The notes under the pieces are model-generated. The model searched no databases. It had not been told where the DNA came from and was given only the letters and a program-made list of their open reading frames with translations. DNA of 36,717 nt, taken from sequence record NC_000929.1. One strand, written 5' to 3'. A program made the position numbers and the translations under genes. Origin of the DNA: Escherichia phage Mu. Below are positions 1 through 36,717 of this stretch, one piece after another. How positions within the stretch are numbered: the stretch's first letter is position 1; every line of letters begins with the position of its first letter.

Positions 1-5
1 TGTAT

Positions 6-172
6 TGATTCACTTGAAGTACGAAAAAAACCGGGAGGACATTGGATTATTCGGGATCTGATGGGATTAGATTTGGTGGGGCTTGCAAGCCTGTAGTGCA
101 AATTTTAGTCGTTAATCAATGAAACGCGAAAGATAGTAAAAAATTGCTTTTGTTTCATTGAAAATACGAAAA
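6..172 (+). repeat. Left-end transposase binding sites L1 (6-27), L2 (111-132), L3 (151-172)
   Basis: Three direct copies of a ~22-bp motif ending in CGAAA(A/G): tgattcacttgaagtacgaaaa, gttaatcaatgaaacgcgaaag, tgtttcattgaaaatacgaaaa. Matches the known MuA end-site layout. Confidence 0.85.
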
Positions 173-338
173 ACAAAAACACTGCAAATCATTTCAATAA
201 CAGCTTCAAAAAACGTTCAAAACCGATAACAACCAAGCTGTCACCAAATGACTCATATCACAAATCAGCTTATGCCGTTTAGGTATGTTACATGTGTGAT
301 TATGTGAGGTGAAGTATGTTTTAGCTGGTTCATGGTTG

Positions 339-929
339 TTATACGGCTTTTTTTACCTCCTGTGGTTCCTGTGAAGGTACTACAACACTTTCCTGTTCAT
401 GAATCCCATACTTTGACAAAATCTCTTTGCGTTTTTCTTCAGGTAATGCATCTAGCATCATCAACGTCTGAATACTTTGCTGTGAAAATCCTATAAAGCT
501 GTAAAGTTTCTGTTCATTAAATACAAGAGGCATTAACGCCAACAACCCCCCTTTACTTAAAAGTTTCAGTGCCTTGCGTGCTTCATCTGGTTCCAGCTCT
601 TCAATCATATTGATTAAGGTTGTGGTTAATTTGTTTATCAGTTCCGAAGAATCCTGTTTCTCATTGGCTTGAGCACCAGTATCCGGTGTGGATAACCCCA
701 AGTGCGCAATAACTTGCTCTCGTTCTTTGGTGGGCATCGACATCACATCGTATTCAACAGCTTTCCCCCCCTTGACACCTTCCTTTTTTTGCTTCGTCCA
801 GCCTTGAACATTTGCTCGATAGTGAACACCAGCAACAGATCCAGGCATACCATCAGCAGCCATAATTTCTTGCGGCGAACACCAAATTGACTTTTCAGTA
901 TTATTCTTTTCTATAAAGTTACTTTTCAA
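339..929 (-). CDS. c: Repressor c (lysogeny repressor, 196 aa)
   Basis: 196-aa ORF beginning MKSNFIEKNNTEKSIW, divergent from ner across the operator region; I recognise it as the Mu repressor. The start codon as read here is TTG. Confidence 0.9.
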   Translation of the reverse strand: MKSNFIEKNNTEKSIWCSPQEIMAADGMPGSVAGVHYRANVQGWTKQKKEGVKGGKAVEYDVMSMPTKEREQVIAHLGLSTPDTGAQANEKQDSSELINKLTTTLINMIEELEPDEARKALKLLSKGGLLALMPLVFNEQKLYSFIGFSQQSIQTLMMLDALPEEKRKEILSKYGIHEQESVVVPSQEPQEVKKAV

Positions 930-1098
930 AATTTAAACTCCTTATTTATCAACGCGTTAATCAGTAATCAAAGGAATTTACCAAAAAGCAGCTTTACAAA
1001 AAGCTTTTCAGTAATTATCTTTTTAGTAAGCTAGCTAAGTTTTTACACTTAGTTAAATTGCTAACTTTATAGATTACAAAACTTAGGAGGGTTTTTAA
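930..1098. promoter_or_regulatory. Early operator/promoter region (Pe rightward, Pc leftward, operators O1-O3, IHF site, transposition enhancer)
   Basis: 169-bp AT-rich divergent intergenic region between c and ner, ending in the AGGAGG ribosome-binding site of ner. The functional assignment is from established Mu biology; individual operator boundaries were not resolved by eye. Confidence 0.7.
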
Positions 1099-1326
1099 AT
1101 GTGTTCCAACGAAAAGGCCCGTGATTGGCATCGTGCGGATGTGATTGCGGGACTTAAGAAAAGAAAGCTCTCTTTATCAGCTCTTTCCCGGCAGTTTGGT
1201 TATGCGCCAACTACATTAGCTAATGCGCTAGAACGACACTGGCCAAAGGGTGAGCAGATTATTGCTAACGCCTTAGAAACTAAACCGGAAGTAATCTGGC
1301 CTAGCCGATATCAAGCAGGTGAATAA
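1099..1326 (+). CDS. ner: Ner, small DNA-binding negative regulator of early transcription (75 aa)
   Basis: 75-aa ORF ([25 protein letters not shown]...) immediately downstream of the operator region with an AGGAGG RBS; recognised as Mu Ner. Confidence 0.92.
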
Positions 1327-1327
1327 C

Positions 1328-3319
1328 ATGGAACTTTGGGTATCACCGAAAGAGTGTGCGAATCTTCCTGGTTTGCCGAAAACATCGGCTGGTGTGATTT
1401 ATGTTGCTAAAAAGCAAGGATGGCAAAACCGCACTAGAGCAGGTGTCAAAGGTGGTAAAGCAATTGAATACAATGCGAACTCTTTACCTGTTGAAGCGAA
1501 AGCGGCGTTATTGCTGAGACAAGGAGAGATTGAAACAAGCCTGGGGTATTTTGAAATCGCCCGCCCCACGCTGGAAGCCCATGATTATGATCGTGAGGCA
1601 CTGTGGAGCAAATGGGATAACGCCAGCGATTCCCAGCGCAGACTTGCTGAAAAATGGTTGCCTGCGGTTCAGGCTGCAGACGAAATGCTGAACCAGGGGA
1701 TTTCAACGAAAACGGCTTTTGCGACCGTTGCAGGGCATTACCAGGTCAGCGCATCCACTTTGCGGGACAAGTATTACCAGGTACAGAAGTTTGCGAAGCC
1801 TGACTGGGCGGCTGCACTTGTTGATGGACGTGGAGCATCCCGTCGCAATGTTCACAAAAGTGAATTTGACGAGGATGCCTGGCAGTTTCTGATTGCAGAT
1901 TATCTGCGACCGGAAAAACCCGCTTTCCGCAAATGTTATGAGCGTCTGGAACTGGCAGCCCGCGAGCATGGCTGGAGTATTCCCTCCCGTGCCACGGCCT
2001 TTCGCCGGATTCAGCAACTGGACGAGGCAATGGTTGTTGCCTGTCGTGAAGGTGAACATGCACTGATGCATCTGATACCGGCACAGCAGCGAACTGTGGA
2101 ACACCTGGACGCCATGCAGTGGATCAACGGCGACGGTTATCTGCATAACGTCTTTGTACGCTGGTTTAACGGTGATGTGATCCGTCCGAAAACATGGTTC
2201 TGGCAGGATGTGAAAACCCGAAAAATTCTGGGCTGGCGCTGCGATGTGAGCGAGAACATTGATTCAATTCGCCTCTCGTTCATGGATGTTGTGACTCGCT
2301 ACGGTATCCCGGAGGATTTTCACATCACCATTGATAACACCCGTGGTGCTGCGAATAAATGGCTGACGGGAGGCGCGCCCAATCGCTACCGCTTTAAGGT
2401 AAAAGAGGACGATCCAAAAGGACTGTTTTTACTGATGGGGGCGAAAATGCACTGGACAAGCGTTGTTGCCGGTAAAGGCTGGGGCCAGGCAAAACCTGTT
2501 GAACGTGCTTTCGGTGTTGGTGGGCTTGAGGAATACGTTGATAAGCATCCGGCACTGGCTGGCGCATATACGGGGCCAAATCCGCAGGCAAAACCTGATA
2601 ACTATGGCGACCGCGCTGTTGATGCAGAGCTGTTTCTGAAAACCCTTGCCGAAGGTGTGGCGATGTTCAATGCCAGAACAGGCCGTGAAACAGAAATGTG
2701 CGGGGGCAAACTCTCGTTTGATGATGTTTTCGAGCGTGAATACGCCAGAACGATTGTGCGTAAGCCAACCGAAGAACAAAAACGGATGCTGTTACTGCCT
2801 GCCGAGGCGGTGAACGTTTCACGCAAAGGCGAGTTTACGCTTAAAGTTGGCGGCTCCCTTAAAGGCGCGAAAAACGTTTATTACAACATGGCATTAATGA
2901 ATGCCGGCGTGAAAAAAGTTGTGGTCAGGTTTGATCCGCAGCAGCTACACAGCACGGTTTATTGCTACACCCTGGACGGTCGGTTTATCTGTGAAGCGGA
3001 ATGTCTGGCACCTGTTGCATTTAATGATGCTGCGGCAGGCCGTGAATATCGCCGCCGCCAGAAACAACTGAAATCTGCGACGAAAGCAGCCATTAAGGCG
3101 CAGAAACAAATGGACGCGCTGGAAGTTGCTGAACTGCTGCCGCAGATAGCCGAACCAGCAGCACCAGAATCACGAATTGTTGGTATTTTCCGGCCTTCCG
3201 GTAATACGGAACGGGTGAAGAATCAGGAGCGTGATGATGAATACGAAACTGAGCGTGATGAATATCTGAATCATTCGCTGGATATTCTGGAACAGAACAG
3301 ACGTAAAAAAGCCATTTAA
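1328..3319 (+). CDS. A: Transposase MuA (DDE transposase, 663 aa)
   Basis: ATG at 1328 gives 663 aa beginning [18 protein letters not shown]; the ORF-track start at 1319 is a GTG just upstream. Size and sequence match MuA. Confidence 0.95.
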
Positions 3320-3357: not shown

Positions 3358-4296
3358 ATGAATATTTCCGATATTCGCGCAGGACTGCGCACGCTTGTAG
3401 AAAATGAAGAAACCACCTTTAAACAAATTGCTCTTGAGAGCGGGCTTTCTACCGGAACTATCAGTAGTTTTATCAATGATAAGTACAACGGGGATAACGA
3501 GCGTGTTTCACAAATGCTGCAACGCTGGCTGGAAAAATATCATGCAGTGGCAGAACTACCTGAACCGCCCCGCTTTGTGGAAACGCAGACGGTAAAACAA
3601 ATCTGGACAAGTATGCGTTTTGCCAGCCTGACTGAAAGTATTGCTGTTGTATGTGGCAATCCTGGTGTGGGCAAAACCGAAGCGGCCCGTGAATATCGCC
3701 GCACCAATAACAATGTCTGGATGATCACCATTACGCCATCCTGTGCCAGCGTTCTGGAATGTCTTACTGAACTGGCGTTTGAGCTGGGAATGAATGACGC
3801 ACCACGCCGTAAAGGGCCGCTCTCCCGCGCCCTGCGACGTCGCCTTGAAGGTACACAGGGGCTGGTTATCATCGACGAAGCTGATCATCTTGGTGCCGAA
3901 GTTCTGGAAGAACTCCGCCTGTTACAGGAATCAACCCGTATTGGCCTTGTGCTGATGGGAAATCACCGGGTTTATTCAAATATGACGGGGGGTAACAGAA
4001 CGGTTGAATTTGCCCGTCTGTTTTCCCGTATTGCAAAGCGCACTGCAATTAATAAAACCAAAAAAGCCGATGTAAAAGCTATTGCGGATGCCTGGCAGAT
4101 TAACGGCGAAAAAGAACTGGAGTTATTACAGCAGATTGCGCAGAAACCAGGTGCGCTTCGCATTCTGAATCATTCACTTCGCCTTGCAGCCATGACGGCT
4201 CACGGTAAAGGTGAGCGTGTTAACGAAGATTATCTGCGTCAGGCTTTCCGTGAATTAGACCTGGACGTTGATATTTCAACGCTGCTGCGTAATTAA
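3358..4296 (+). CDS. B: MuB, ATP-dependent target DNA activator (312 aa)
   Basis: 312-aa ORF with a Walker A motif (GNPGVGKTEA) and Walker B-like IIDEADHL; follows A as in Mu. Confidence 0.95.
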   Translation: MNISDIRAGLRTLVENEETTFKQIALESGLSTGTISSFINDKYNGDNERVSQMLQRWLEKYHAVAELPEPPRFVETQTVKQIWTSMRFASLTESIAVVCGNPGVGKTEAAREYRRTNNNVWMITITPSCASVLECLTELAFELGMNDAPRRKGPLSRALRRRLEGTQGLVIIDEADHLGAEVLEELRLLQESTRIGLVLMGNHRVYSNMTGGNRTVEFARLFSRIAKRTAINKTKKADVKAIADAWQINGEKELELLQQIAQKPGALRILNHSLRLAAMTAHGKGERVNEDYLRQAFRELDLDVDISTLLRN

Positions 4297-4311: not shown

Positions 4312-4539
4312 ATGATGGCCCGAAATATAAAAATGGCAACGGATGCGCAGAACTGGTTACAGGCGCGCGGGAGTCATGTAAATGAATCATATCTCGGCGT
4401 GGCGCGTCCGATTCTTGAAATCACTTACCCACCGGTGGAACTGGTAAAAAACGCGGTCAGAATTATGGAGCATAAGTCCGGGGTGGCCCGTTCTGTATGG
4501 ACGGCCCGTCTTAATGGTTGCCAGATTATCTGGAGATAA
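4312..4539 (+). CDS. kil: Small early protein, probably Kil (host-killing/cell-division inhibitor)
   Basis: 75-aa ORF directly after B with an AAGGAG RBS; position and size fit Mu kil (~74 aa). Naming rests on position and size only. Confidence 0.6.
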
Positions 4540-4541
4540 CG

Positions 4542-4772
4542 ATGTGTATTAAAGCTGAAAAATATATTGAATGGGTTAAACACTGTCAGTGCCACGGGGT
4601 GCCGCTGACGACATATAAATGCCCCGGATGTGGTGAACAGATTATGACGCAATGCTCACCCGAAAAGGAAATTCGGGATTCCCTGACATGTTGTCCGTGG
4701 TGCAGCGCAGTTTTCTTTAAACAGGTAAAAGGCGCGAAGGTAAAAGCCAGCGCGGTTATTCAGAATCAATAA
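4542..4772 (+). CDS. Early small Cys-rich protein (putative zinc-ribbon), function unknown
   Basis: ATG at 4542 follows the kil stop (TAA 4537-4539) with a GGAGA RBS; the product contains C-x-C ... CPGC ... CC-x2-C. The ORF-track start at 4518 overlaps kil and is less likely. Confidence 0.65.
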   Translation: MCIKAEKYIEWVKHCQCHGVPLTTYKCPGCGEQIMTQCSPEKEIRDSLTCCPWCSAVFFKQVKGAKVKASAVIQNQ

Positions 4773-4783
4773 GGTGAAACAAA

Positions 4784-5047
4784 ATGGCAAAAGTAATTAT
4801 TGAAATTAAAAATACAGTATCTGGAATTAAAGGACGGAATTTGCGCACCAGCATTGCGGTGGACGGTAGTGCGGAACTGGACGGTGATGAGGGTACACTT
4901 GCTGGCATGGTGGCGTTACTGGTGCTTAATAAAAGCCAGAAAATAATTAATGAGTCAGCCCATGAAGCTATTGAGATTTTGAAAAACGATGGTGTCATCA
5001 CCAGTGGTCGTGTCACTGAAATGGCTGTTGAAAAAACATGTCACTGA
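4784..5047 (+). CDS. Early hypothetical protein (87 aa)
   Basis: ORF with an AAGGTGA RBS, tightly packed in the early operon; no recognisable domain. Confidence 0.6.
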   Translation: MAKVIIEIKNTVSGIKGRNLRTSIAVDGSAELDGDEGTLAGMVALLVLNKSQKIINESAHEAIEILKNDGVITSGRVTEMAVEKTCH

Positions 5048-5061
5048 AAGGAACGCTGACA

Positions 5062-5481
5062 ATGAATGTCAAAATCCGAAATGAAATTCAGGCATTAATC
5101 CGAATTCAGGAACGCAATAACAACGGTGGTGAATTACGCGAGTTTATTTGTGCGCGTGAAGTTGATGGCTATGGTGAAAAAACTTACCTGATTACTTTCG
5201 ACCATTACAGCATCTGTGCGCGTTATTGCGGCGAAAGCATATCCCGCGCCATTGCGTCTGGCGATGCGTTTAACGTGGATTTATGGGAGTACGTCATGGA
5301 CCGGGAATACATCTGCGCATCAGACCCTGAAGCCCGTGAAATGTGGCAGCGTATCTGGCGCGATTACCGGTTAATGGCAAAAGGCTGGGCGCGCTGCTGT
5401 TATTCCTCGCTTGCCCTGAAAGCGGTTCAGTTATCGCTGCGGCATATTCCGGCATCACTGCGCGAGCCTCTGCTGTACTGA
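5062..5481 (+). CDS. Early hypothetical protein (139 aa; alternative start 5038)
   Basis: In-frame ATG at 5062 preceded by AAGGAAC; the ORF-track start at 5038 overlaps the previous gene. Confidence 0.6.
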   Translation: MNVKIRNEIQALIRIQERNNNGGELREFICAREVDGYGEKTYLITFDHYSICARYCGESISRAIASGDAFNVDLWEYVMDREYICASDPEAREMWQRIWRDYRLMAKGWARCCYSSLALKAVQLSLRHIPASLREPLLY

Positions 5482-5493
5482 ATGGTGACTGAC

Positions 5494-5781
5494 ATGAAGT
5501 GTAATCGTAAGCGCTGGTCACGCGAAGACCGGGAATTTATCGAAGCCAACGTCGGGAAAATGACCGTTGAAGAAATGGCGGAAAAACTGAAAGTCGCCAC
5601 AACCGCCCTCCGGGCACATGCCAGAAGGCACGGAATATCATTGTGTGTATACCGAATCAGTGAACACGACAAATATTTATGTCGTGAACTTTATAAAGAA
5701 GGACTGGATATTCATGTTATTGCCCGAAAGATGGAATTAAGCAATCGAGCTGTATCCAGCATTGTATACAGCGGATATTAA
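5494..5781 (+). CDS. Early hypothetical protein with a helix-turn-helix-like segment (95 aa; alternative start 5482)
   Basis: ATG at 5494 preceded by GGTGA; the product contains MTVEEMAEKLKVATTALRAHARRHG, which looks HTH-like. Confidence 0.55.
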   Translation: MKCNRKRWSREDREFIEANVGKMTVEEMAEKLKVATTALRAHARRHGISLCVYRISEHDKYLCRELYKEGLDIHVIARKMELSNRAVSSIVYSGY

Positions 5782-5800
5782 TTAACAGGAGCTTTAATTT

Positions 5801-6325
5801 ATGGCTAAACCAGCAAAACGTATCAAGAGTGCCGCAGCGGCTTATGTGCCACAAAACCGCGATGCGGTGATTACCGATATTAAACGCATCGGGGATTTAC
5901 AGCGCGAAGCATCACGTCTGGAAACGGAAATGAATGATGCCATCGCGGAAATTACGGAGAAATTTGCGGCCCGGATTGCACCGATTAAAACCGATATTGA
6001 AACCCTTTCAAAAGGCGTTCAGGGATGGTGTGAAGCGAACCGCGACGAACTGACGAACGGCGGCAAAGTGAAGACGGCGAATCTTGTCACCGGTGATGTA
6101 TCGTGGCGGGTCCGTCCACCATCAGTAAGTATTCGTGGTATGGATGCAGTGATGGAAACGCTGGAGCGTCTTGGCCTGCAACGCTTTATTCGCACGAAGC
6201 AGGAAATCAACAAGGAAGCGATTTTACTGGAACCGAAAGCGGTCGCAGGCGTTGCCGGAATTACAGTTAAATCAGGCATTGAGGATTTTTCTATTATTCC
6301 ATTTGAACAGGAAGCCGGTATTTAA
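5801..6325 (+). CDS. gam: Gam, Ku-like DNA-end binding protein protecting linear DNA from host nuclease (174 aa)
   Basis: 174-aa ORF (MAKPAKRIKSAAAAYVPQNRDAVITDIKRIGD...) with an AGGAG RBS; recognised as Mu Gam. Confidence 0.9.
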   Translation: MAKPAKRIKSAAAAYVPQNRDAVITDIKRIGDLQREASRLETEMNDAIAEITEKFAARIAPIKTDIETLSKGVQGWCEANRDELTNGGKVKTANLVTGDVSWRVRPPSVSIRGMDAVMETLERLGLQRFIRTKQEINKEAILLEPKAVAGVAGITVKSGIEDFSIIPFEQEAGI

Positions 6326-6423
6326 TACCACCATTAATATTTAATTAATTCACATTCTTTTAATTATGGCGCGATACGTCAGGAGATTGCTCGCGCCTGA
6401 AACAGATTACTGAGGAATAAAAC

Positions 6424-6954
6424 ATGGTTGATGCAAAAATTCTGAATGGTGTCAGCACATTATTACGGGCTTACGGACGCCTGACCTGCGGAGTTCTGGC
6501 TGAAAAAATGAATATGCTGCCCTCGTCAATGGTGTATTTCCTGCGTGATGCGGTTGATGCCGGAGTGCTCACCGAATGCAACGGATTTTATGACGTTCCG
6601 CGCCCGCGTCCGACGCCGCCTGTAAGACGAAACGCAACTGAGCAGCCTGCTGTTGATGATGCGGTGTGGTGCAACTGGCGTCGCTCATTACCCTGGGTGG
6701 AAGGTAATACCATCCCCGCGCTGGCAAAAGAGTTTGCGACGGGCGTGCTGACCTGTGAGTCAGTCCACATTGTTGCTGAGGTGGATAACAGAATGTGCGA
6801 ACAGGGAATGCCCCGTTTTGTGATGGCTTATATCGATATCCGGCTGGGGCGTTTTATTTGCAGTTCAAGCGTCTGGAATATCACCGACCATGTACTGCGT
6901 TATCTCATTCTTGATTGTTCTCCGGCTCCCGCAGCGGTGCAGGAGGTGGCGTGA
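6424..6954 (+). CDS. Early hypothetical protein (176 aa), possible winged-helix N-terminus
   Basis: ORF with a GAGGA RBS; the N-terminus resembles a small DNA-binding fold; function unknown. Confidence 0.6.
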   Translation: MVDAKILNGVSTLLRAYGRLTCGVLAEKMNMLPSSMVYFLRDAVDAGVLTECNGFYDVPRPRPTPPVRRNATEQPAVDDAVWCNWRRSLPWVEGNTIPALAKEFATGVLTCESVHIVAEVDNRMCEQGMPRFVMAYIDIRLGRFICSSSVWNITDHVLRYLILDCSPAPAAVQEVA

Positions 6955-7484
6955 TGTTTTTTAAAACGTCAAATCCCGCAGCACTGCTGGCGTGGGACCA
7001 GTTTATGGCGGACTGTCTGAAACTACGCGAAGAAGCCCGCCATCTTGATAAGGTTCTGGGTTGTGGTTGCCGGTCAGTATTCAGCACAAGTATTGGTGGG
7101 CGTTATTTTCATGGTGTGAACTTTCCGGGGAATGAGCGCCCTTTCTCGCGGGAGCTGTGGACCGTACAACGGCCCGCATCAGGTAACAGTTGCAGGCCCA
7201 GAACTTCGCGGATACCTGCTCATCTCAGGGAGCAGGCAAGAGAGCTGGCGAAAATATGGCAGGAGAATATTCCGGTCACTTACGCCCGCACAGACGCTCT
7301 TTTACCCGCACTGGGACTGGATTTCAGCGCAACAATATTCGGGCCGCTCCAGTGGTTCCGTGTTGGTGATGTGATTTACGTCATGACGGGGATGACACCC
7401 GCGCAAGGCCGCATGACTGAAATCCTTTCTGACGAATTTATCCGGGCGCAAAAACAGGCGGAGGTAAACAATGGAAAACAATAA
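6954..7484 (+). CDS. Early hypothetical protein (176 aa)
   Basis: ATG at 6954 overlaps the previous stop (TGATG) and is preceded by AGGAGGTGG; the ORF-track start at 6915 is upstream in the same frame. Confidence 0.65.
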   Translation: MFFKTSNPAALLAWDQFMADCLKLREEARHLDKVLGCGCRSVFSTSIGGRYFHGVNFPGNERPFSRELWTVQRPASGNSCRPRTSRIPAHLREQARELAKIWQENIPVTYARTDALLPALGLDFSATIFGPLQWFRVGDVIYVMTGMTPAQGRMTEILSDEFIRAQKQAEVNNGKQ

Positions 7485-7653
7485 AACATCGTATTCGTGG
7501 CTGGGGAAATTCACCACGGTGAAACAGGAATGCCCGACCTGCGGTAATGAATCCCCTGAATATCTGAAAGAGTGCCCTCATTGTGGCGGGCTGAAATGCA
7601 ACCACTGCGATATGGGCGATGACACAGCGTGCATGAATTGTGAAGGTGAATAA
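7471..7653 (+). CDS. Early small Cys-rich protein (60 aa, putative zinc ribbon)
   Basis: GGAGGT RBS; product has CPTCG ... CPHCG ... C-x2-C ... C-x2-C, i.e. four CxxC pairs. Confidence 0.65.
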   Translation: MENNKTSYSWLGKFTTVKQECPTCGNESPEYLKECPHCGGLKCNHCDMGDDTACMNCEGE

Positions 7654-7654
7654 T

Positions 7655-7957
7655 ATGAATAATGAAACTAAATTTACTCCCCTTAATATTGATAACGTCA
7701 TGGCTGAAAAAGGGATGCTGGAACGTGTTCGCGCTATCGTTGAATATGGTATTAAGCATAATCTCACCGCCAGAGAAGTCCGTGACATTATCAACCGCGA
7801 AATGAATCGTCTGGAAACAGTAGTGGCACTGCAAAATGAAACAGCCCGCGAGGAGTACATCCGCCGCAGGCTGGGGCTATCAGACCAGGATATTGTTACT
7901 GACGCTCATGTGTTTGAGGCTTTTGAGATCCGTCAGCATCTGGGTCTAACGAACTGA
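7655..7957 (+). CDS. Early hypothetical protein (100 aa)
   Basis: ATG at 7655 immediately after the previous stop (TAA 7651-7653) with a GAAGGTGAA RBS; the ORF-track start at 7640 is a GTG. Confidence 0.6.
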   Translation: MNNETKFTPLNIDNVMAEKGMLERVRAIVEYGIKHNLTAREVRDIINREMNRLETVVALQNETAREEYIRRRLGLSDQDIVTDAHVFEAFEIRQHLGLTN

Positions 7958-8162: not shown

Positions 8163-8232
8163 AAAATCCTCTCTGATTGATGTGTAAATTCAGGCGGTGT
8201 TGCAGCACCGCCCCCTTTCCGGAGGTACGATC

Positions 8233-9170: not shown

Positions 9171-9176
9171 ACAGTA

Positions 9177-9200
9177 AAGCCGGTTAATCCGGCTTTTTTT
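9177..9200 (+). terminator. Rho-independent terminator ending the early operon
   Basis: Stem AAGCCGG / CCGGCTT with loop TTAAT, followed by a run of seven T, 7 nt after the mor stop codon. Confidence 0.8.
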
Positions 9201-9821: not shown

Positions 9822-9830
9822 AGGGGCACC

Positions 9831-27695: not shown

Positions 27696-28827
27696 TACCG
27701 TCACACTGCGAGCGGATGGCAGGCTGTTTACCGGCTGGACGTCAGTCTCTGTCACCCGCTCGATTGAATCCGTAGCCGGATATTTTGAGCTGGGGGTGAA
27801 CGTGCCACCGGGCACGGATTTATCCGGGCTGGCTCCGGGGAAGAAGTTCACGCTGGAAATCGGGGGGCAGATTGTCTGCACCGGTTATATCGATTCACGG
27901 CGACGCCAGATGACCGCTGACAGTATGAAAATCACTGTCGCCGGACGTGACAAAACGGCTGACCTGATTGACTGTGCTGCCGTTTACAGTGGCGGACAGT
28001 GGAAAAACCGCACACTGGAGCAGATTGCGCGTGACCTGTGCGCTCCTTATGGCGTTACCGTTCGCTGGGAGCTTTCCGATAAGGAAAGTTCGGCAGCTTT
28101 TCCCGGCTTCACGCTGGACCATTCAGAAACCGTTTATGAGGCGCTGGTGCGTGCCTCCCGCGCACGCGGTGTACTGATGACCAGCAATGCCGCCGGAGAG
28201 CTGGTATTCAGCCGGGCTGCCAGCACAGCCACTGATGAGCTGGTTCTCGGAGAAAATCTGCTGACACTGGATTTTGAGGAAGACTTCCGCGACCGGTTCA
28301 GCGAATACACCGTCAAGGGGTATGCCCGCGCAAATGGTGCTGAGGGTGATGATATTGATGCGAAAAGTATCGTATCCCGGAAAGGGACCGCCACTGACAG
28401 TGATGTGACCCGTTACAGACCGATGATCATCATTGCTGACAGCAAGATTACGGCGAAGGATGCACAGGCCCGCGCCCTGCGTGAGCAACGCCGCAGACTG
28501 GCAAAATCCATCACCTTTGAGGCAGAAATTGACGGATGGACTCGCAAGGACGGGCAACTCTGGATGCCGAACCTGCTGGTCACTATTGATGCCTCGAAAT
28601 ATGCCATCAAAACCACGGAATTACTGGTCAGCAAAGTCACCCTGATACTGAATGACCAGGACGGGCTGAAAACCCGCGTCAGCCTTGCACCACGCGAAGG
28701 CTTTCTGGTGCCGGTTGAAAGCGACCGTAAAAACAGGAAAGGCGGCGACAGTAACGGCGGTATTGATGCGCTGGTTGAAGATTATTATCGCAGACACCCG
28801 GAGAAAACGCCGCCGTGGAAAGAGTAA
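27688..28827 (+). CDS. Q: Baseplate hub protein Q (379 aa)
   Basis: Overlaps the end of P; position within the baseplate gene block. Confidence 0.78.
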
Positions 28828-29408
28828 ATGATTCCGCCTTGAACCGCCTGCTGACGCCGCTGATGCGTCGTGTGCGCCTGATGCTTGCGCGCGCTGTTGT
28901 TAACGTGATTAACGACGGGCGAAAGGTTCAGAACCTGCAGGTCGGTCTGCTGGATGATGAGGAATCCGATGAAGTGGAGCGCCTGCAAAATTACGGGCAT
29001 TTCAGCGTTCCCCTGCCGGGCGCAGAGGCGCTGATTGCCTGTGTAGGCGCACAACGTGATCAGGGGATTGCTGTTGTGGTGGAAGACCGCCGCTACCGCC
29101 CGACAAATCTTGAACCGGGTGATGCAGGCATTTACCACCACGAGGGGCATCGTATCAGGCTGACAAAGGACGGACGCTGCATCATTACCTGTAAAACGGT
29201 TGAGGTTTACGCTGATGAAAGTATGACCGTTGACACACCCAGAACCACGTTTACCGGCGACGTTGAGATCCAGAAAGGTCTGGGCGTTAAAGGTAAAAGC
29301 CAGTTCGACAGCAATATTACTGCCCCGGATGCCATCATCAATGGCAAATCGACGGATAAGCATATCCACCGTGGCGACAGCGGCGGAACCACAGGGCCGA
29401 TGCAATGA
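28815..29408 (+). CDS. V: Baseplate central spike protein V (197 aa; alternative ATG start at 28863)
   Basis: GTG start at 28815 overlapping the Q 3' end; the first in-frame ATG is at 28863. Confidence 0.75.
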   Translation: MERVNDSALNRLLTPLMRRVRLMLARAVVNVINDGRKVQNLQVGLLDDEESDEVERLQNYGHFSVPLPGAEALIACVGAQRDQGIAVVVEDRRYRPTNLEPGDAGIYHHEGHRIRLTKDGRCIITCKTVEVYADESMTVDTPRTTFTGDVEIQKGLGVKGKSQFDSNITAPDAIINGKSTDKHIHRGDSGGTTGPMQ

Positions 29409-29842
29409 CCGATTTAGCCATTATCTGGACGAACGGACGCGGCGATATTGCGCAGGATGGTATTGATATGCTGACCGACGACAGCCTGACAACCGATGTG
29501 ACAATCTCTCTGTTTACCGACCGGCGCGCGCTGGATTCTGACACGCTGCCGGATGGTTCAGATGATCGCCGTGGATGGTGGGGTGACAGTTACCGCGACC
29601 GCCCCATCGGTTCGCGGTTGTGGCTGTTATCACGTGAAAAAGCCACGCCGGATACGCTGGAACGCGCCAGAGGGTATGCCGAAGAGGCGCTGGAATGGCT
29701 GAAAACAGCGGGCCGGGTAAGTGCGATTAACGTCAGAGCGGAACAGTTACATCAGGGCTGGTTATACCTCTACATTGCACTGACATTACCGGATGGTTCC
29801 GTTATTCCTTATGAGTTTAAAGCAGCATTTAACGGGGTTTAA
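29405..29842 (+). CDS. W: Baseplate protein W (145 aa)
   Basis: ATGA overlap with V; small baseplate protein in the expected position. Confidence 0.78.
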   Translation: MTDLAIIWTNGRGDIAQDGIDMLTDDSLTTDVTISLFTDRRALDSDTLPDGSDDRRGWWGDSYRDRPIGSRLWLLSREKATPDTLERARGYAEEALEWLKTAGRVSAINVRAEQLHQGWLYLYIALTLPDGSVIPYEFKAAFNGV

Positions 29843-30925
29843 ATGGCTTATTCACCACCGACATTATCATCGCTGATTGCCCGTACAGAACAGAATATTG
29901 AACAGCGCCTGCCGGGTAGCTGGCCTCAGGCCCGTGAAAAAACGCTGAGTGCCATTGCTTATGCTCAGGCGGGCCTTGCTGCCGGTTGTCACGAGCATAT
30001 TTCATGGGTTGGACGGCAGATTATCCCGTCGACAGCAGATGAAGATGAGTTGCTGGAGCACTGCCGGTTCTGGGGCGTGCGCCGCAAACAGGCGACAGCC
30101 GCCAGCGGCCCGCTGACTGTCACCACATCGGCAGCGACCACCATTCCTGCCGGTACACGCTGGCAGCGTGCTGATGGTGTGGTTTACAGCCTGGCTGATA
30201 CCATTGTGATTGACCGTGCAGGAACGACGGAAATTACCGTTACCGCACTGGCTGCCGGTGAAGCAGGAAATACCGGTGAGAATACCCTTTTAACGTTGAT
30301 CACCCCGGTTGCCTGTGTTGTTTCCGATGCCATCACTGTAAAAGGGTTTTCCGGTGGAGCTGATATTGAGAGTGCAGCGGAGCTGCTGTCACGGCTGGAA
30401 TATCGTGTCCAGTATCCTCCGTTCGGCGGTAATCAGTTTGATTACGTTCGCTGGGCACGTGAAGTCAGCGGTGTTACCCGTGCCTGGTGTTTTCCGACAT
30501 GGAAAGGCGGTGGCACAGTCGGGGTGACGTTTGTTATGGATAACCGGAGCAATATTTTTCCGCAACCGGCAGACGTGGAACGCGTGGCGGATTATATCGC
30601 CGGTCATACTGACCCGATCACTGGTCTGATTGTCGGACAGCCTGACGGTGTAAATGTCACGGTATTTGCGCCAAAGGCAAAGCCGGTAAATCCACGGATT
30701 TATATATCACCGAAGACAGCCGAACTGAAACAGGCTATTACCAACGCCATTAATACCATGTTTTTTAATGAGGTGATGCCGGGCGGCGCACTTGCCCCCT
30801 CCCGTATTATCCGTGCGGTGGCAGGTGTTACCGGTCTGGATGATTTTGAAGTGCGTTTCCCGACAGAGATCCAGCGTTCGGAGAATACGGAACTCTTAAC
30901 AGCGGGGACAATTGAATGGCTGTAA
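29843..30925 (+). CDS. R: Baseplate wedge protein R (360 aa)
   Basis: ATG directly after the W stop codon; position in the baseplate block. Confidence 0.78.
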   Translation: MAYSPPTLSSLIARTEQNIEQRLPGSWPQAREKTLSAIAYAQAGLAAGCHEHISWVGRQIIPSTADEDELLEHCRFWGVRRKQATAASGPLTVTTSAATTIPAGTRWQRADGVVYSLADTIVIDRAGTTEITVTALAAGEAGNTGENTLLTLITPVACVVSDAITVKGFSGGADIESAAELLSRLEYRVQYPPFGGNQFDYVRWAREVSGVTRAWCFPTWKGGGTVGVTFVMDNRSNIFPQPADVERVADYIAGHTDPITGLIVGQPDGVNVTVFAPKAKPVNPRIYISPKTAELKQAITNAINTMFFNEVMPGGALAPSRIIRAVAGVTGLDDFEVRFPTEIQRSENTELLTAGTIEWL

Positions 30926-31458
30926 CACCCTGGCAGACGGCCTTTCTGCAATTACTGCCGTCAGGGCTTGCCTGGAATAAAAGCCCCGACAGCAAATTAT
31001 CTGCGCTGGCGCAGGCCATCAGCGACGTGATTGCCACTGCGGCGGATGATGCGCGGCAAATGCTGCGGGAGCGTTTCCCGTCCACATCCCGCTGGTATCT
31101 GGGGGAGTGGGAATCATTTCTGGGGTTGCCGGACTGTACCAGCGAAAACGGCACCCTGTCCGAACGCCAGCGGGCTGCCGCGAATAAAATGCGTATGACC
31201 GGCAATCTGAGTCGGCGCTTTTATGAATGGCTGGCTGCGCAGTACGGTTTTACCGTCAGGCTGACGGATTCCACAGAAGGCCAGTGGGTTACGCAGGTCA
31301 ATATTTACGGTATTAAAAATTATCGCAACGCAACGGTGCTGGATAATGTTCTGACGCCGTTACGTGTTTATGAATCGGGTGCGCTGGAATGTTTACTGGA
31401 GAAATATAAACCCGCGCATCAGATTTATAAATTTGTTTACCATGACGGAGATAACTAA
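30916..31458 (+). CDS. Baseplate wedge / tail-fibre attachment protein (180 aa)
   Basis: Overlaps R at its 5' end and S at its 3' end (TAATG). Confidence 0.75.
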   Translation: MAVTPWQTAFLQLLPSGLAWNKSPDSKLSALAQAISDVIATAADDARQMLRERFPSTSRWYLGEWESFLGLPDCTSENGTLSERQRAAANKMRMTGNLSRRFYEWLAAQYGFTVRLTDSTEGQWVTQVNIYGIKNYRNATVLDNVLTPLRVYESGALECLLEKYKPAHQIYKFVYHDGDN

Positions 31459-32972
31459 TGTTTTATATTGATAACGACAGCGGCGTAACCGTCATGCCGC
31501 CCGTATCCGCCCAGCGTAGTGCTATCGTTCGCTGGTTTTCAGAAGGTGACGGGAATAATGTTATCACATGGCCCGGCATGGACTGGTTTAATATTGTGCA
31601 GGCGGAGTTATTAAACACGCTGGAAGAAGCCGGTATTCAACCGGATAAAACAAAATTAAACCAGCTTGCACTGTCCATTAAAGCCATTATGAGCAATAAC
31701 GCGCTGCTGATAAAAAATAACCTCAGCGAAATTAAAACTGCCGGGGCATCAGCACAGCGTACAGCACGTGAAAATCTGGATATCTATGATGCCAGCCTGA
31801 ACAAAAAAGGACTCGTTCAGCTAACCAGTGCCACTGACAGCCCCAGTGAAACGCTGGCAGCCACCGCAAAAGCGGTGAAAATTGCAATGGATAATGCCAA
31901 TGCCCGTCTGGCAAAAGACCGGAACGGAGCAGATATTCCCAATAAGCCGCTGTTTATCCAAAACCTCGGTTTACAGGAAACGGTAAACAGGGCTAGGAAC
32001 GCCGTGCAAAAGAATGGCGATACCTTGTCCGGTGGGCTTACTTTTGAAAACGACTCAATCCTTGCCTGGATTCGAAATACTGACTGGGCAAAGATTGGAT
32101 TTAAAAATGATGCCGACAGCGACACTGATTCATACATGTGGTTTGAAACAGGCGACAACGGCAATGAATATTTCAAATGGAGAAGCAAACAAAGCACCAC
32201 AACAAAAGACCTGATGAATCTTAAATGGGATGCTTTGTCTGTTCTTGTCAATGCCATTGTAAATGGCGAAGTCATATCAAAATCAGCAAACGGCCTCCGT
32301 ATTGCTTATGGTAATTACGGATTCTTTATTCGTAATGATGGTTCAAATACATACTTCATGTTGACAAACTCCGGTGACAACATGGGGACTTATAACGGAT
32401 TAAGGCCATTATGGATTAATAACGCTACTGGCGCTGTTTCGATGGGGCGTGGTCTTAATGTTTCAGGGGATACACTTTCAGACCGTTTTGCTATTAACAG
32501 CAGTAATGGTATGTGGATTCAGATGCGCGATAACAACGCTATCTTTGGGAAAAATATAGTTAACACTGATAGCGCTCAGGCGTTGCTTCGCCAGAATCAC
32601 GCCGACCGCAAATTTATGATTGGCGGTCTGGGAAATAAGCAATTTGGCATCTACATGATTAATAACTCAAGGACAGCCAATGGCACCGATGGTCAGGCGT
32701 ACATGGATAATAACGGAAACTGGTTATGCGGTGCTCAGGTCATTCCGGGAAATTACGCCAACTTTGACTCCCGCTACGTGCGTGACGTTCGGCTGGGAAC
32801 TCAGTCACTGACTGGCGGCTTGTCTCGTGATTACAAGGCGCCATCCGGTCATGTTATTACAGGTTTTCATACCAATGGCGACTGGGAAATGCAGGGAGGG
32901 GATGACAAGGTTTATATCCGTCCGGTTCAGAAGAATATCAACGGTACCTGGTATAATGTAGCGAGCGCCTGA
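31458..32972 (+). CDS. S: Tail fibre protein S (504 aa): constant part (31458-31953) fused to the variable part inside the G segment
   Basis: The ORF crosses the left inverted repeat at 31954; the peptide [11 protein letters not shown] is encoded by the repeat and is shared with the minus-strand S' ORF. Confidence 0.9.
31954..31987 (+). repeat. Left 34-bp inverted repeat of the G segment (Gin recombination site)
   Basis: ttatccaaaacctcggtttacaggaaacggtaaa; its exact reverse complement is at 35004-35037. Confidence 0.9.
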
Positions 32973-32974
32973 TT

Positions 32975-33502
32975 ATGATGCATCTGAAAAACATTAAGTC
33001 AGAAAATCCAAAAACTAAAGAGCAATATCAGCTAACAAAGAATTTTGATGTTATCTGGTTATGGTCCGAAGACGGGAAAAACTGGTATGAAGAAGTAAAT
33101 AACTTTCAGGACGACACCATAAAGATTGTATACGACGAAAATAATATTATTGTTGCCATAACCAAAGATGCCTCAACGCTTAATCCCGAAGGCTTTAGCG
33201 TCGTTGAGATTCCAGATATAACAGCCAACCGCCGCGCTGATGATTCAGGAAAGTGGATGTTTAAGGATGGAGCTGTAGTTAAACGGATTTATACGGCAGA
33301 CGAACAGCAACAACAAGCCGAATCACAAAAGGCCGCATTGCTTTCCGAAGCTGAATCAGTCATCCAGCCGCTGGAACGCGCTGTCAGGCTGAATATGGCG
33401 ACGGATGAGGAACGCGCACGACTGGAGTCATGGGAACGCTACAGTGTTCTGGTCAGCCGTGTGGATACGGCAAATCCCGAATGGCCACAAAAGCCTGAAT
33501 AA
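32975..33502 (+). CDS. U: Tail fibre assembly protein U (175 aa)
   Basis: Starts [22 protein letters not shown]; clear paralog of the minus-strand U' ORF ([22 protein letters not shown]). Confidence 0.88.
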
Positions 33503-33507
33503 AAATT

Positions 33508-33527
33508 AAGGCCCGATAGCGGGCCTT
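33508..33527. terminator. Bidirectional hairpin terminator between convergent U and U'
   Basis: Stem AAGGCCCG / CGGGCCTT with loop ATAG, lying between the two convergent stop codons. Confidence 0.7.
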
Positions 33528-33530
33528 CTC

Positions 33531-34064
33531 TCATTCTGGTTGTTCTGGAAACGTTACTGGCAGGCTGGAGGTGTCTGTGGATTCGACCTTCTGCGCGTAG
33601 AGCATCCACTCTGTTAATTTTTGTTTATTCTCGTCGGAAATGATGCCCAGCCGTAGCTGTGAGTCCCATAGCTGTGTTTTATCCCTGACGAGCTGTAGCA
33701 GGCTTTGCTTTTCATTTTCCGCTTGTTGCCTCTGCTCTTCCTCGGTATAAGTTCGCTTTATCACTACACCATCTTTGAACATCCATTTACCCGAAATATC
33801 AGCCCGGCGATTTGCTGTAATATCAGGAACCTCAACGACGTTTGCGCCTTCTGGATTAATTGCTGAAACATCCTTTTCAATACAAATAATAACGCCGTTG
33901 TGGTCATAGACCATTTTCAACGTATCAGGCTGAAAGTTCTTTTGTTCCTCATACCAGTTTTTCCCATCCTCTGTATAAAGCCATTTGATGTTAAATTGTT
34001 TCGTTAGCTGGTATTGCTCTTTTGTTTTAGGGTTGCCAGCAGTAATATTTTTTAAGTGCATCAT
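33531..34064 (-). CDS. U': Alternative tail fibre assembly protein U' (177 aa)
   Basis: Paralog of U on the opposite strand inside the G segment. Confidence 0.88.
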   Translation of the reverse strand: MMHLKNITAGNPKTKEQYQLTKQFNIKWLYTEDGKNWYEEQKNFQPDTLKMVYDHNGVIICIEKDVSAINPEGANVVEVPDITANRRADISGKWMFKDGVVIKRTYTEEEQRQQAENEKQSLLQLVRDKTQLWDSQLRLGIISDENKQKLTEWMLYAQKVESTDTSSLPVTFPEQPE

Positions 34065-34066
34065 AA

Positions 34067-35037
34067 TTAAATACTCCCCGCGTTATACCACGTTCCATTA
34101 ATGCAATACTGAATTGGCCTTGCCTGAGTTGTATCAATTAATTCATCACGGTTTCCGTTAACTGAACCCGTAACGACATAACCTGACCTGTCAGACCAGC
34201 CGGGACCATTCCATGTCTGAACAGATGACAGACCGCCAAGACGAATACCTGTAATAAACCTTGAGTTACATTCTGCCTGCGTATATGCACCAACATCTCC
34301 CGCTGATGGCTTACGTGTTGTGGTGTAAATTTCTGACCAGTCAGCTTCGAATCCGTAACCATCACGCGCTGAACGATAAAAAATACCGCCGTTCCTGTAA
34401 TTCACACGGAACTGTACGGCAGGGCAACTCCCCGTATTCATATTGAAGTGGAGGATTAATGTCGATGCGCCACCAATATTTGCGTTATAGACCCCGCTAT
34501 TCCAGTTCCAGCCAACAGCTTTATCATTTCCGACAGTGCTTCCTGTTTGTCCTAAAGCAAATGCAGGCTGCTGGTTTTTCGTGTTGTAGTCTCGTCGCCA
34601 GCCAGGAGCATAAGCATCACCATGATTAATATAAGTGAATTGAGCGTTAGTGATTCCGCCGCCGCTGGACGTACTCGGCGTAGTAACGCGTATGGTCATT
34701 GCGCCGCGAGTGCCAATAACTTCCACCACAGCACCTGCAAGACAAATATTTCCGCAACCTGTATCTGTAATGACCTTATTGTTTGCATAAGCCCATGAGC
34801 CTTTGCACATCCAGTAAGGATGGTTAAATGCCCCCTGACTCTCCAGCCACGAAATAAATTGTGCGGTTGTCCAGACCTGACTATCGCCACCAATATTCAG
34901 CCATGCGCTATATGCGCGACAGGCCCCAATATTTTTGGTGAAGGTATCTTTTCCTGGAATATCTGCGCCGTTCTGGTTTTGCTGTAATGCGCCAGAAGCC
35001 TGATTTACCGTTTCCTGTAAACCGAGGTTTTGGATAA
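34067..35037 (-). CDS. S': Alternative tail-fibre variable part S' (promoterless here; fuses to the constant part of S after inversion)
   Basis: The minus-strand ORF shares the repeat-encoded [12 protein letters not shown] with S and then diverges. The ORF-track 5' extension beyond 35037 runs outside the G segment and is not expected to be translated. Confidence 0.8.
35004..35037 (+). repeat. Right 34-bp inverted repeat of the G segment (Gin recombination site)
   Basis: tttaccgtttcctgtaaaccgaggttttggataa, the reverse complement of 31954-31987. Confidence 0.9.
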
Positions 35038-35091
35038 TGGTCGATTTTGGCACGCATGGCATGATTGGCGCTTTTAAACAGGAGATCCAGA

Positions 35092-35673
35092 GTGCTGATT
35101 GGCTATGTAAGGGTATCAACAAATGACCAGAATACAGACCTGCAACGAAACGCTCTTGTTTGTGCAGGATGTGAACAAATATTTGAAGATAAATTAAGCG
35201 GAACAAGGACAGACCGACCGGGATTAAAACGCGCTTTAAAGCGCCTTCAAAAAGGTGACACACTGGTTGTCTGGAAACTGGATCGCCTCGGGCGAAGCAT
35301 GAAACATTTGATTTCTCTCGTAGGGGAATTACGAGAGCGAGGGATTAATTTTCGCAGTCTTACTGACAGTATTGATACGTCATCTCCAATGGGGCGTTTT
35401 TTCTTCCACGTTATGGGTGCCCTGGCTGAAATGGAACGAGAACTAATTATCGAGCGAACGATGGCTGGACTTGCTGCCGCCAGAAATAAAGGCCGTATTG
35501 GTGGGCGACCACCTAAACTAACCAAAGCGGAATGGGAGCAGGCCGGGCGTTTATTAGCACAAGGAATCCCCCGCAAGCAGGTTGCATTGATCTACGATGT
35601 GGCCCTGTCAACTCTGTATAAAAAACACCCCGCGAAACGAGCGCATATAGAAAACGACGATCGAATCAATTAA
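35092..35673 (+). CDS. gin: Gin, serine-recombinase DNA invertase (193 aa)
   Basis: GTG start at 35092 gives MLIGYVRVSTNDQNTDLQ with the catalytic-serine motif of resolvase/invertase enzymes and a C-terminal HTH; GGAG upstream. The ORF-track start at 35065 is a TTG. Confidence 0.92.
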   Translation: MLIGYVRVSTNDQNTDLQRNALVCAGCEQIFEDKLSGTRTDRPGLKRALKRLQKGDTLVVWKLDRLGRSMKHLISLVGELRERGINFRSLTDSIDTSSPMGRFFFHVMGALAEMERELIIERTMAGLAAARNKGRIGGRPPKLTKAEWEQAGRLLAQGIPRKQVALIYDVALSTLYKKHPAKRAHIENDDRIN

Positions 35674-35767
35674 ATCGATCGGTAATACAGATCGATTATG
35701 CCCCAATAACCACACTCAACCCATGATGTTTTTTAAGATAGTGGCGAATTGATGCAAAGGAGGTGAG
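35659..35767 (+). promoter_or_regulatory. mom operon control region: three GATC (Dam) sites and the C-dependent promoter Pmom
   Basis: GATC at 35659-35662, 35677-35680 and 35690-35693, followed by TTATGCCCCAATAACCACACTCAACCC and the com RBS AAAGGAGGTGAG. The regulatory roles are from established Mu biology. Confidence 0.7.
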
Positions 35768-35956
35768 ATGAAATCAATTCGCTGTAAAAACTGCAACAAA
35801 CTGTTATTTAAGGCGGATTCCTTTGATCACATTGAAATCAGGTGTCCGCGTTGCAAACGTCACATCATAATGCTGAATGCCTGCGAGCATCCCACGGAGA
35901 AACATTGTGGGAAAAGAGAAAAAATCACGCATTCTGACGAAACCGTGCGTTATTGA
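35768..35956 (+). CDS. com: Com, zinc-finger translational activator of mom (62 aa)
   Basis: [33 protein letters not shown] with two CxxC pairs; overlaps the 5' end of mom. Confidence 0.9.
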
Positions 35957-36602
35957 GTATGAAGGCCAGATTGTTGGCTATGGTTCAAAGGAGCTGCGCG
36001 TTGAAACCATATCCTGCTGGCTGGCCCGCACAATTATTCAGACAAAGCACTATTCCCGCCGTTTTGTGAATAACTCTTACCTTCACCTGGGGGTATTCAG
36101 CGGACGCGATCTGGTTGGCGTTCTCCAGTGGGGATATGCCCTTAACCCCAACTCAGGTCGTCGTGTCGTGCTTGAAACGGATAACCGGGGCTATATGGAG
36201 TTGAACCGCATGTGGCTACACGACGACATGCCCCGCAACTCTGAATCACGGGCCATCAGCTACGCGCTGAAAGTTATCAGATTACTGTATCCGTCAGTGG
36301 AGTGGGTTCAGTCCTTTGCAGATGAACGCTGCGGACGCGCAGGCGTTGTGTATCAGGCGTCGAATTTTGATTTTATTGGCAGTCATGAAAGTACGTTCTA
36401 CGAGCTGGATGGTGAGTGGTATCACGAGATAACGATGAACGCGATTAAGCGAGGTGGACAACGAGGCGTGTATTTACGGGCTAATAAAGAGCGTGCCGTG
36501 GTACACAAATTTAATCAGTATCGCTACATCAGATTCCTGAACAAACGAGCAAGGAAGCGGCTAAATACCAAACTATTCAAGGTTCAGCCATACCCTAAGT
36601 GA
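35877..36602 (+). CDS. mom: Mom, DNA adenine modification enzyme conferring anti-restriction (alternative GTG start at 35907)
   Basis: 241-aa ORF from the ATG at 35877, overlapping the 3' end of com by 80 nt; last gene before the right end. Which start is used is uncertain. Confidence 0.85.
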
Positions 36603-36640
36603 TCCCCATGTAATGAATAAAAAGCAGTAATTAATACATC

Positions 36641-36717
36641 TGTTTCATTTGAAGCGCGAAAGCTAAAGTTTTCGCATTTATCGTGAAACGCTTTCGCGTT
36701 TTTCGTGCGCCGCTTCA
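36641..36717 (+). repeat. Right-end transposase binding sites R3 (36641-36662), R2 (~36667-36690, inverted), R1 (36695-36717, inverted)
   Basis: tgtttcatttgaagcgcgaaag in direct orientation; the reverse complements cgtttcacgataaatgcgaaaac and tgaagcggcgcacgaaaaacgcg match the end-site motif seen at the left end; the window ends in ...CA. Confidence 0.85.

Follow-up and report, generated by a model that had tools for sequence, protein, structure and literature searches.

The 36,717-nucleotide stretch of DNA analyzed here (the window) has the layout of a Mu-type transposable phage. This raises the question of whether it is bacteriophage Mu itself, a relative or a new element, and, if Mu, which form of it. 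Our comparisons indicate that the window is almost certainly bacteriophage Mu (Muvirus mu) in full, trimmed exactly to the two ends of the transposon, and that it belongs to the Mu cts62 lineage of the laboratory, the form deposited as the reference.

Genome identity and lineage

As proxies for the Mu reference, we used the prophage copies in Escherichia coli W and S17-1 and partial GenBank records of phage Mu. The W genome paper (PMC3032704) gives the name Mu to the E. coli W prophage and cites Morgan et al. 2002 for the Mu reference genome AF083977 / NC_000929; elsewhere NC_000929 is referred to as 'Mu cts62' (PMC4406740). An ungapped comparison of all 36,717 positions with the W prophage ('WMu', NC_017664.1 292800-329516), which has the same length, revealed 3 mismatches and no insertion or deletion (36,714/36,717 bases shared, 99.99%). 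The S17-1 copy was equally close, with 4 mismatches and no indel over the full 36,717 nt. Seven partial Mu records (M64097, AF007792, M11195, AB000833, V01464, X06796, and AF466696) were 98.5–100% identical to the window, and the Mu reference record is presumably also 36,717 bp long. The first-pass annotation had judged the window to be most likely phage Mu itself and not a new element, and had named less than ~90% identity to Mu, or large insertions or deletions, as signs to the contrary; the values above uphold its judgment. From the prophage copies and partial records, together with a matching lineage marker, we infer that the window would be identical to the deposited AF083977 / NC_000929. 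It is a well-known transposable phage, and no sign of a new element, gene or mechanism was seen.

The lineage marker lies in the c repressor gene (339..929, minus strand; 196 codons from a TTG start; Pfam PF02316, E = 5e-54). The window differs from the W prophage at 790, 19272, and 29509, where it carries T, G, and T, respectively. The first of these falls in repressor codon 47, which is CAA (Gln) in the window and CGA (Arg) in both W and S17-1; the two others are synonymous changes in T and gp46, leaving repressor residue 47 as the sole amino-acid difference from the W prophage. Repressor residues 13–81 equal those of PDB 1QPM/1G4D save for Q47 in place of R47, and the Gln47 base is common to the window and the old Mu left-end record M64097. 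Gln47 for Arg47 would be the cts62 heat-sensitive allele, reportedly described in work on Mu repressor mutants by Vogel et al. in 1991; a statement of the residue change in cts62 was not found in the literature searched. The presence of Gln47 agrees with an origin from Mu cts62, the heat-inducible phage used in the laboratory and the source of the reference genome.

Other readings of the same differences were considered. It is very unlikely that the window comes from another, slightly different isolate of the laboratory phage, with the synonymous changes at 19272 and 29509, or some departure from the reference, as signs of a sub-lineage not yet described. Also very unlikely is an origin from a chromosome assembly, the sequence being that of the Mu prophage naturally carried by E. 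coli W or by an S17-1-type strain. The prophage of NC_017664.1 would suit such an origin, being 99.99% identical, equal in length and in the same G(+) orientation as the window, but all prophage copies examined carry Arg47 in the repressor as well as the two synonymous differences, whereas the Gln47 base of the window recurs in M64097.

There is scarcely any chance that the window represents another Muvirus member, such as D108, SfMu or a Yersinia Mu-like phage, even though these are 96–98% identical to it over most of the length. The immunity region (c, ner, and operators) is of the Mu type and not the D108 type; V01464 and M64097 match it at 99.8–99.9%, and M64097 has the same gene order and immunity region. 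Phage D108 (GQ357916) shares the gene order, has 96–98% identity over about 34 kb, and carries a MuA-site motif of the same type annotated at both ends. However, it is not alignable to the window at 360-1518, 4817-5046, 7681-8192, and 36599-36717. These intervals comprise a differing immunity region (c, ner, and the A N-terminus), two divergent early patches, and a divergent right end, the last accompanied by the extra gene 56. Shigella phage SfMu (KP010268) is colinear with the window at about 96% identity, with an almost identical right end and conserved left-end MuA sites, but its immunity region differs, and the matches of both SfMu and D108 start only at about 1508-1510. The best Yersinia phages reached 95% query coverage at 98.2% identity, compared with 100% coverage and 99.99% for the Mu copies. 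The immunity-region comparison rules out a different Muvirus. An engineered derivative (a mini-Mu, a Mud, or a Mu with a resistance marker) is just as improbable: laboratory derivatives of Mu cts62 are common, but the gap-free full-length comparison rules this out, since not one base is inserted or deleted relative to the two natural prophage copies, and the ORF and Pfam survey of the window revealed no marker gene.

The value of this assignment is one of bookkeeping only, namely that the window is labelled phage Mu (cts62 type). Its sub-features (the end sites, the enhancer and operators, the central gyrase site, the G inversion, and the com/mom control region) are to be weighed against a very large Mu literature before any is called new.

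Transposon ends and chromosomal boundaries

The window begins with 5'-TGTATTGATTCAC and finishes with GCGCCGCTTCA-3', so that the genome termini read 5'-TG...CA-3'. A search with the 22-nt MuA-site consensus YGTTTCAYTNNAARYRCGAAAR, allowing at most 3 mismatches, gave four matches, at 6-27 (+), 151-172 (+), 36641-36662 (+), and 36669-36690 (-), against 0.12 expected; four matches were reached in 0/100 shuffles. The site R1 at 36691-36712 (-) has 4 mismatches to this consensus, and L2 matches it in the right half only. The window contains exactly six copies of the conserved 11-nt half-site AARYRCGAAAR, all of them within MuA sites, whereas 0.51 were expected by chance; six were likewise reached in 0/100 shuffles. 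The occurrences lie at 17-27, 122-132, and 162-172 (all +) in the left end and at 36652-36662 (+), 36669-36679 (-), and 36691-36701 (-) in the right end.

The six half-sites and the full-site matches together define three MuA sites per end. The left end (attL, 1..172, +) contains the terminal TG followed by L1 (6-27), L2 (~111-132, from the half-site at 122-132), and L3 (151-172), with spacers of 83 nt between L1 and L2 and 18 nt between L2 and L3, and is conserved in D108 and SfMu. The right end (attR, 36641..36717) contains R3 (36641-36662), R2 (36669-36690), and R1 (36691-36712), then the terminal CA. L1–L3 and R3 are on the plus strand and R2 and R1 on the minus strand. This arrangement, with three sites at each end, inverted R1 and R2, a TG start, and a CA end, is the one noticed on first reading, and it agrees with the ends of Mu as described in PMC3145075. 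In D108 and SfMu the half-sites themselves are unchanged; it is the intervening spacers that vary.

Homology to both prophage copies, that of W and that of S17-1, runs exactly from window base 1 to base 36717, and beyond these bases the two host contexts are unlike each other. The earlier observation that the window has no flanking host DNA therefore holds. The W copy lies within the Flag-2 locus and has the 5-bp duplication GCCGC directly next to Mu on either side. The S17-1 copy is located between an RP4 remnant and mhp and has no matching 5-bp duplication, as would be expected had a replicon fusion of RP4::Mu, mediated by Mu, given rise to it; its flanks are consistent with a transposition-mediated rearrangement. 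Natural copies of the window sequence thus occupy different chromosomal places. On the other hand, the description of the window as a packaged-genome-style sequence does not stand. Mu DNA in the virion has host DNA at both ends, 50–150 bp on the left and up to 2–3 kb on the right (PMC5977238), so a sequence that stops exactly at TG...CA is no packaged molecule but a reference that has been edited and trimmed.

On the basis of established Mu biology, MuA monomers bound to L1–L3 and R1–R3 would be brought together, on a supercoiled molecule, with the enhancer, which would lie in the operator region near 0.95 kb. HU acting in the 83-nt L1–L2 spacer, IHF, and the central gyrase site would presumably assist assembly. 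MuA would then nick the 3' CA ends and join them to MuB-captured target DNA with a 5-bp stagger. Infection would lead to non-replicative integration and lytic growth to replicative transposition, and headful packaging would start at the left end, with host DNA taken up on both sides.

Regulatory and early genes

The operators, divergent promoters, and transpositional enhancer would all lie in the control region between c and ner (930..1098). This region contains the sole match to the IHF consensus in the window (947-959) and a promoter-like site at 993-1021 (+). The function of this region was assigned from established Mu knowledge and PMC3820752. The early negative regulator gene ner follows at 1099..1326 (+; Pfam HTH_35, E = 1.5e-27) and is so named in M64097.

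The A gene (1328..3319, +) encodes the 663-aa DDE transposase MuA, with Pfam domains DDE_2 (E = 2e-136), HTH_Tnp_Mu_1, HTH_Tnp_Mu_2, and Mu-transpos_C and PDB matches to 4FCY, 1BCM, 2EZK, 2EZH, and 1TNS. PF02316 matches both the repressor and the MuA N-terminus, and this shared DNA-binding domain would explain how the repressor blocks early transcription as well as use of the enhancer. The B gene (3358..4296, +) encodes the AAA+ target-capture protein MuB (Pfam Phage-MuB_C and AAA_22), and a MuA-type DDE transposase with an adjoining MuB-type AAA+ partner is thus present. The semi-essential early region (4312..8784, +) comprises kil (4312-4539), gp6–gp9, gam (5801-6325; Pfam Phage_Mu_Gam), gp11–gp14, and gemA (8233-8784), with names taken from M64097 and D108 and the W annotation mapped onto the window. 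The activator region (8781..10385, +) contains mor, gp18, gp19, and C in that order; the middle activator mor (8781-9170, +) and the late activator C (9963-10385, +) both belong to the Pfam Mor family.

The first-pass annotation had found the canonical Mu gene order, and this is confirmed by Pfam and by colinearity with D108 and SfMu, whose genes are named. Pfam or PDB matches cover MuA, MuB, c, ner, Gam, Mor, C, Lys, portal, F, I, T, L, tape measure, N, P, gp47, Gin, and Mom.

Late genes, G segment and mom operon

The lysis region (10480..12304, +), assigned by Pfam Phage_lysozyme and the RefSeq annotation of the W copy, contains the endolysin gene lys (10480-10995), an Rz-like gene (10979-11365), the embedded Rz1-like lysC (11262-11567), and gp24–gp26. 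The head genes follow at 12316..20055 (+; Pfam Portal_Mu, Phage_Mu_F, Mu-like_Pro, and Mu-like_gpT) and comprise gp27 (12316-12891), gp28 for the terminase large subunit (12899-14554), gp29 for the portal (14554-16092), F/gp30 (16073-17392), G (17389-17859), I for the protease with a nested scaffold (18056-19141), and T for the major head protein (19138-20055). Between G and I is a non-coding gap (17860..18055), ~0.3–0.5 kb left of the midpoint at 18358. A central strong gyrase site (SGS) has been described for Mu (PMC3820752); it is expected to lie in this gap, its position being given by the gap only.

The tail and baseplate genes (20122..31458, +; Pfam sheath domains, TMP_3, DNA_circ_N, GpP domains, and Baseplate_J) consist of gp35–gp38, the sheath gene L (21689-23176), the tube gene (23186-23542), gp41 (23552-23986), the tape measure gene gp42 (24131-26203), N (26208-27695), P (27688-28827), and gp45–gp48 (28815-31458). 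No slippery heptamer of the form XXXYYYZ, a sign of tail-chaperone frameshifting, was found in 23850-23990 at the end of gp41, and scans of the window with Rfam (gathering threshold) and for tRNAs gave no matches.

The tail-fibre gene S (31458..32972, +) is a continuous 504-codon ORF that reads through the left G boundary, which places the window in the G(+) orientation. The invertible G segment (31954..35037) is bounded by inverted repeats at 31954-31994 and 34997-35037 (41 nt, 93% complementary). Within it, the plus strand encodes the variable part of S together with U (32975-33502), and the minus strand encodes U' (33531-34064) together with S' (34067-35062). The serine invertase gene gin lies beyond it at 35092..35673 (+; Pfam Resolvase and HTH_7). 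In a second E. coli W assembly, NC_017635.1, the G segment is inverted at 100% identity. An invertase, inverted repeats, alternative fibre and assembly genes, and both orientations were thus all found, which identifies a tail-fibre switch of the Gin/Hin/Cin type. The mom operon (35659..36602, +; Pfam Mom, E = 2.4e-75) consists of a GATC cluster at 35659, 35677, and 35690, com (35768-35956), and mom (35877-36602), which overlaps com.

Identity of the window with Mu records and prophage copies

Comparison with Mu was based on seven partial "phage Mu" records and on prophage copies as proxies. The partial records showed 98.5–100% identity: M64097 (99.8%, window 1-10663), AF007792 (100%, 10300-14648), M11195 (100%, 1021-4263), V01464 (99.9%, 1-1592), AB000833 (99.9%, 21243-24337), X06796 (99.7%, about 26042-28942), and AF466696 (98.5%, G segment). 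Among complete Escherichia coli genomes, about a dozen records contained the full query at a rounded identity of 100.0%; these were E. coli W, apparent W derivatives or re-sequencings (grouped by strain name or common coordinates), S17-1, and ST18. Two copies were laid against the window ungapped and compared at every position. The W prophage (minus strand of NC_017664.1 292800-329516) differed at 3 of the 36,717 positions and the S17-1 copy at 4, with no indels over the full length in either. These results agree with the first-pass annotation, which took the window to be most likely Mu itself, an element already known in full detail. Identity with both copies ran from base 1 through base 36717, bearing out the earlier statement that host flanks are absent.

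The W copy has GCCGC on either side, a 5-bp target duplication of the kind that Mu transposition should leave. In the W genome paper this element is listed as a Mu prophage and placed in non-coding sequence of the Flag-2 locus (PMC3032704). At the S17-1 junctions (positions 2000/2001 and 38717/38718 of the locus from NZ_CP040667.1), the flanking 5-mers are GCCGG and GCGGG and so do not form a duplication. The neighbours of this copy are RP4 remnants (trfA and a tetR fragment) at one end and the mhp operon at the other, a setting that would be expected had RP4::Mu reached the chromosome via a Mu-mediated rearrangement. A second Mu-matching place was present in the same record.

The sister phage D108 (GQ357916) showed 96–98% identity to the window over 1519-4816, 5047-7680, and 8193-36598, and only 80% over 1-359. 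No D108 alignment was obtained over 360-1518 (c, ner, and the A N-terminus), 4817-5046, 7681-8192, and the final 119 nt, and D108 has an extra gene, 56, compared with the window. The match of SfMu (KP010268) to the window begins only at about 1508. The DNA-binding domain of the window repressor (residues 13-81) was identical to the Mu repressor structure (PDB 1QPM/1G4D) except for residue 47. Judged from these alignments, the window represents Mu itself, as opposed to a sister phage. The Yersinia pestis phages vB_YpM_23 and vB_YpM_3 matched from window base 1 at about 98%; unlike in D108 and SfMu, the match covers the Mu-type immunity region, and these phages seem to have Mu immunity in common with the window.

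Repressor residue 47 and the old left-end record

Two of the three differences from W, in T codon 45 and in gp46 codon 35, were synonymous. The third lay in c codon 47 (window 789-791, minus strand), which is CGA (Arg) in W and CAA (Gln) in the window; Gln47 is thus the sole amino-acid difference between the two. Arg47 was found in the wild-type structure (PDB 1QPM/1G4D) and in the W and S17-1 prophages, and M64097, an old Mu left-end record, has the same codon-47 base as the window. We take cts62 to be the Arg47-to-Gln change of the repressor, and Gln47 is probably this heat-sensitive allele. A published paper (PMC4406740) refers to the reference NC_000929 as 'Mu cts62'. With the Gln47 marker, the window is therefore read as the laboratory heat-inducible Mu cts62. 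An origin of the window as a chromosome excerpt is disfavoured, since the prophage copies carry Arg47 and the window Gln47 as in M64097.

Compared with the window, the 1980s-era M64097 showed 18 mismatches and 2 single-base gaps, and a 176-codon ORF (window 6424-6954) is broken into three small ORFs (E10, E11, and E12) in that record. Two independent modern assemblies side with the window there, which marks the M64097 differences as old sequencing errors.

MuA-binding sites, transposition and inversion

A 22-nt MuA-site consensus of the published type, YGTTTCAYTNNAARYRCGAAAR, served as a search lead. At up to 3 mismatches, four matches were found in the whole window against 0.12 expected (0 of 100 shuffles reached four): 6-27 (+), 151-172 (+), 36641-36662 (+), and 36669-36690 (-). 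With the cut-off loosened to 5 mismatches, 36691-36712 (-) was also detected, at 4 mismatches, along with two scattered intragenic matches at 5 mismatches each, which are regarded as noise. The better-conserved half-site, AARYRCGAAAR, occurred exactly six times in the entire window against 0.51 expected, and no shuffle gave six. Three lay at the left end (17-27, 122-132, and 162-172, all +) and three at the right end [36652-36662 (+), 36669-36679 (-), and 36691-36701 (-)]. This layout equals the L1, L2, L3 / R3, R2, R1 arrangement reported for Mu, whose ends carry three MuA-binding sites each at differing spacings (PMC3145075). The spacers were 83 nt (L1-L2), 18 nt (L2-L3), 6 nt (R3-R2), and 0 nt (R2-R1). 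R3 has the orientation of L1-L3, and R1 and R2 are inverted; L2 fits the consensus in its right half only, and the left half of R1 is degenerate. In comparison with D108 and SfMu, the half-sites were invariant, and the L2-L3 spacer and the spacers around R2 varied, the pattern that functional sites should show. The earlier description of three sites per end with R1 and R2 inverted was thus recovered, as were the TG start and CA finish, the window beginning with TGTATTGATTCAC and ending with GCGCCGCTTCA.

In addition to the site arrays at both ends, the window encodes a transposase and its AAA+ partner, and the same element is inserted at unrelated loci, in one case with a 5-bp duplication. PF02316 was found in both the repressor and the MuA N-terminus, which have this DNA-binding domain in common, and PDB 1TNS matched the repressor (E = 2.9e-12). 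From established Mu biology (PMC3820752, PMC3145075, PMC5977238), MuA would assemble on L1-L3, R1-R3, and the enhancer in supercoiled DNA, aided by HU, IHF, and a central gyrase site, and would nick at the terminal CA before strand transfer into MuB-bound target DNA. Replicative transposition would drive lytic growth, and headful packaging would start at the left end, taking in host DNA at both ends (50-150 bp at the left, up to 2-3 kb at the right). Since packaged Mu carries host flanks, the window, which has none, is a reference-style sequence that has been trimmed and not, as the first-pass annotation had it, a packaged-genome-style one.

The G segment (31954-35037) has the G(+) orientation here, and S reads through. 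It was inverted at 100% identity in NC_017635.1 (locus L005, 1781-4864), a second assembly of E. coli W, compared with the other W assembly; opposite orientations in two assemblies of one strain indicate that Gin-mediated inversion was caught directly.

Gene content and control sites

For the gene map, RefSeq features of the W copy and gene names from D108 and M64097 were projected onto the window; the map follows the canonical Mu order noted earlier. It runs from c (339-929, minus strand), ner, A, and B through the early block (kil to gemA), the activators mor and C, and lys with spanin-like genes to the head genes (gp27, gp28, portal gp29, F, G, I/Z, and T). Next come the tail and baseplate genes (gp35-38, L, the tube protein, gp41, the tape measure, N, P, and gp45-48), the pair S and U, the minus-strand pair U' and S', and finally gin, com, and mom. 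Pfam gave strong scores for 19 of the 20 proteins scanned; gp28, the remaining one, had no Pfam match and is labelled terminase large subunit by RefSeq in related prophages. MuA matched the transpososome structure 4FCY and separate domain structures. Scans of the window detected no Rfam families or tRNA genes. No canonical XXXYYYZ slippery heptamer was found at the gp41 end (23850-23990), where D108 has a small overlapping gene, 41.5, annotated; a tail-chaperone frameshift there, if one exists, would lack the textbook motif. An 88-codon ORF (7896-8162, minus strand) lies on the opposite strand within the early operon, inside the patch (7681-8192) where D108 and Mu do not align. Both prophage copies, W and S17-1, have it in their RefSeq annotation, and its SfMu counterpart is SfMu_16.

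The IHF consensus WATCAANNNNTTR had a single match in the whole window, at 947-959 within the c-ner control region; the count is not significant (1.57 expected), and the location alone is suggestive. The 196-nt G-I gap (17860-18055) is non-coding, rich in A/T, and contains phased T runs. Its distance from the exact midpoint (18358) is 0.3-0.5 kb to the left, and it is where the central strong gyrase site is expected. Three GATC sequences (35659, 35677, and 35690) fall inside 32 nt at the gin end, just upstream of com/mom, a location known for Dam-dependent mom control. The mom gene begins (35877) within com (35768-35956), so that the two overlap.
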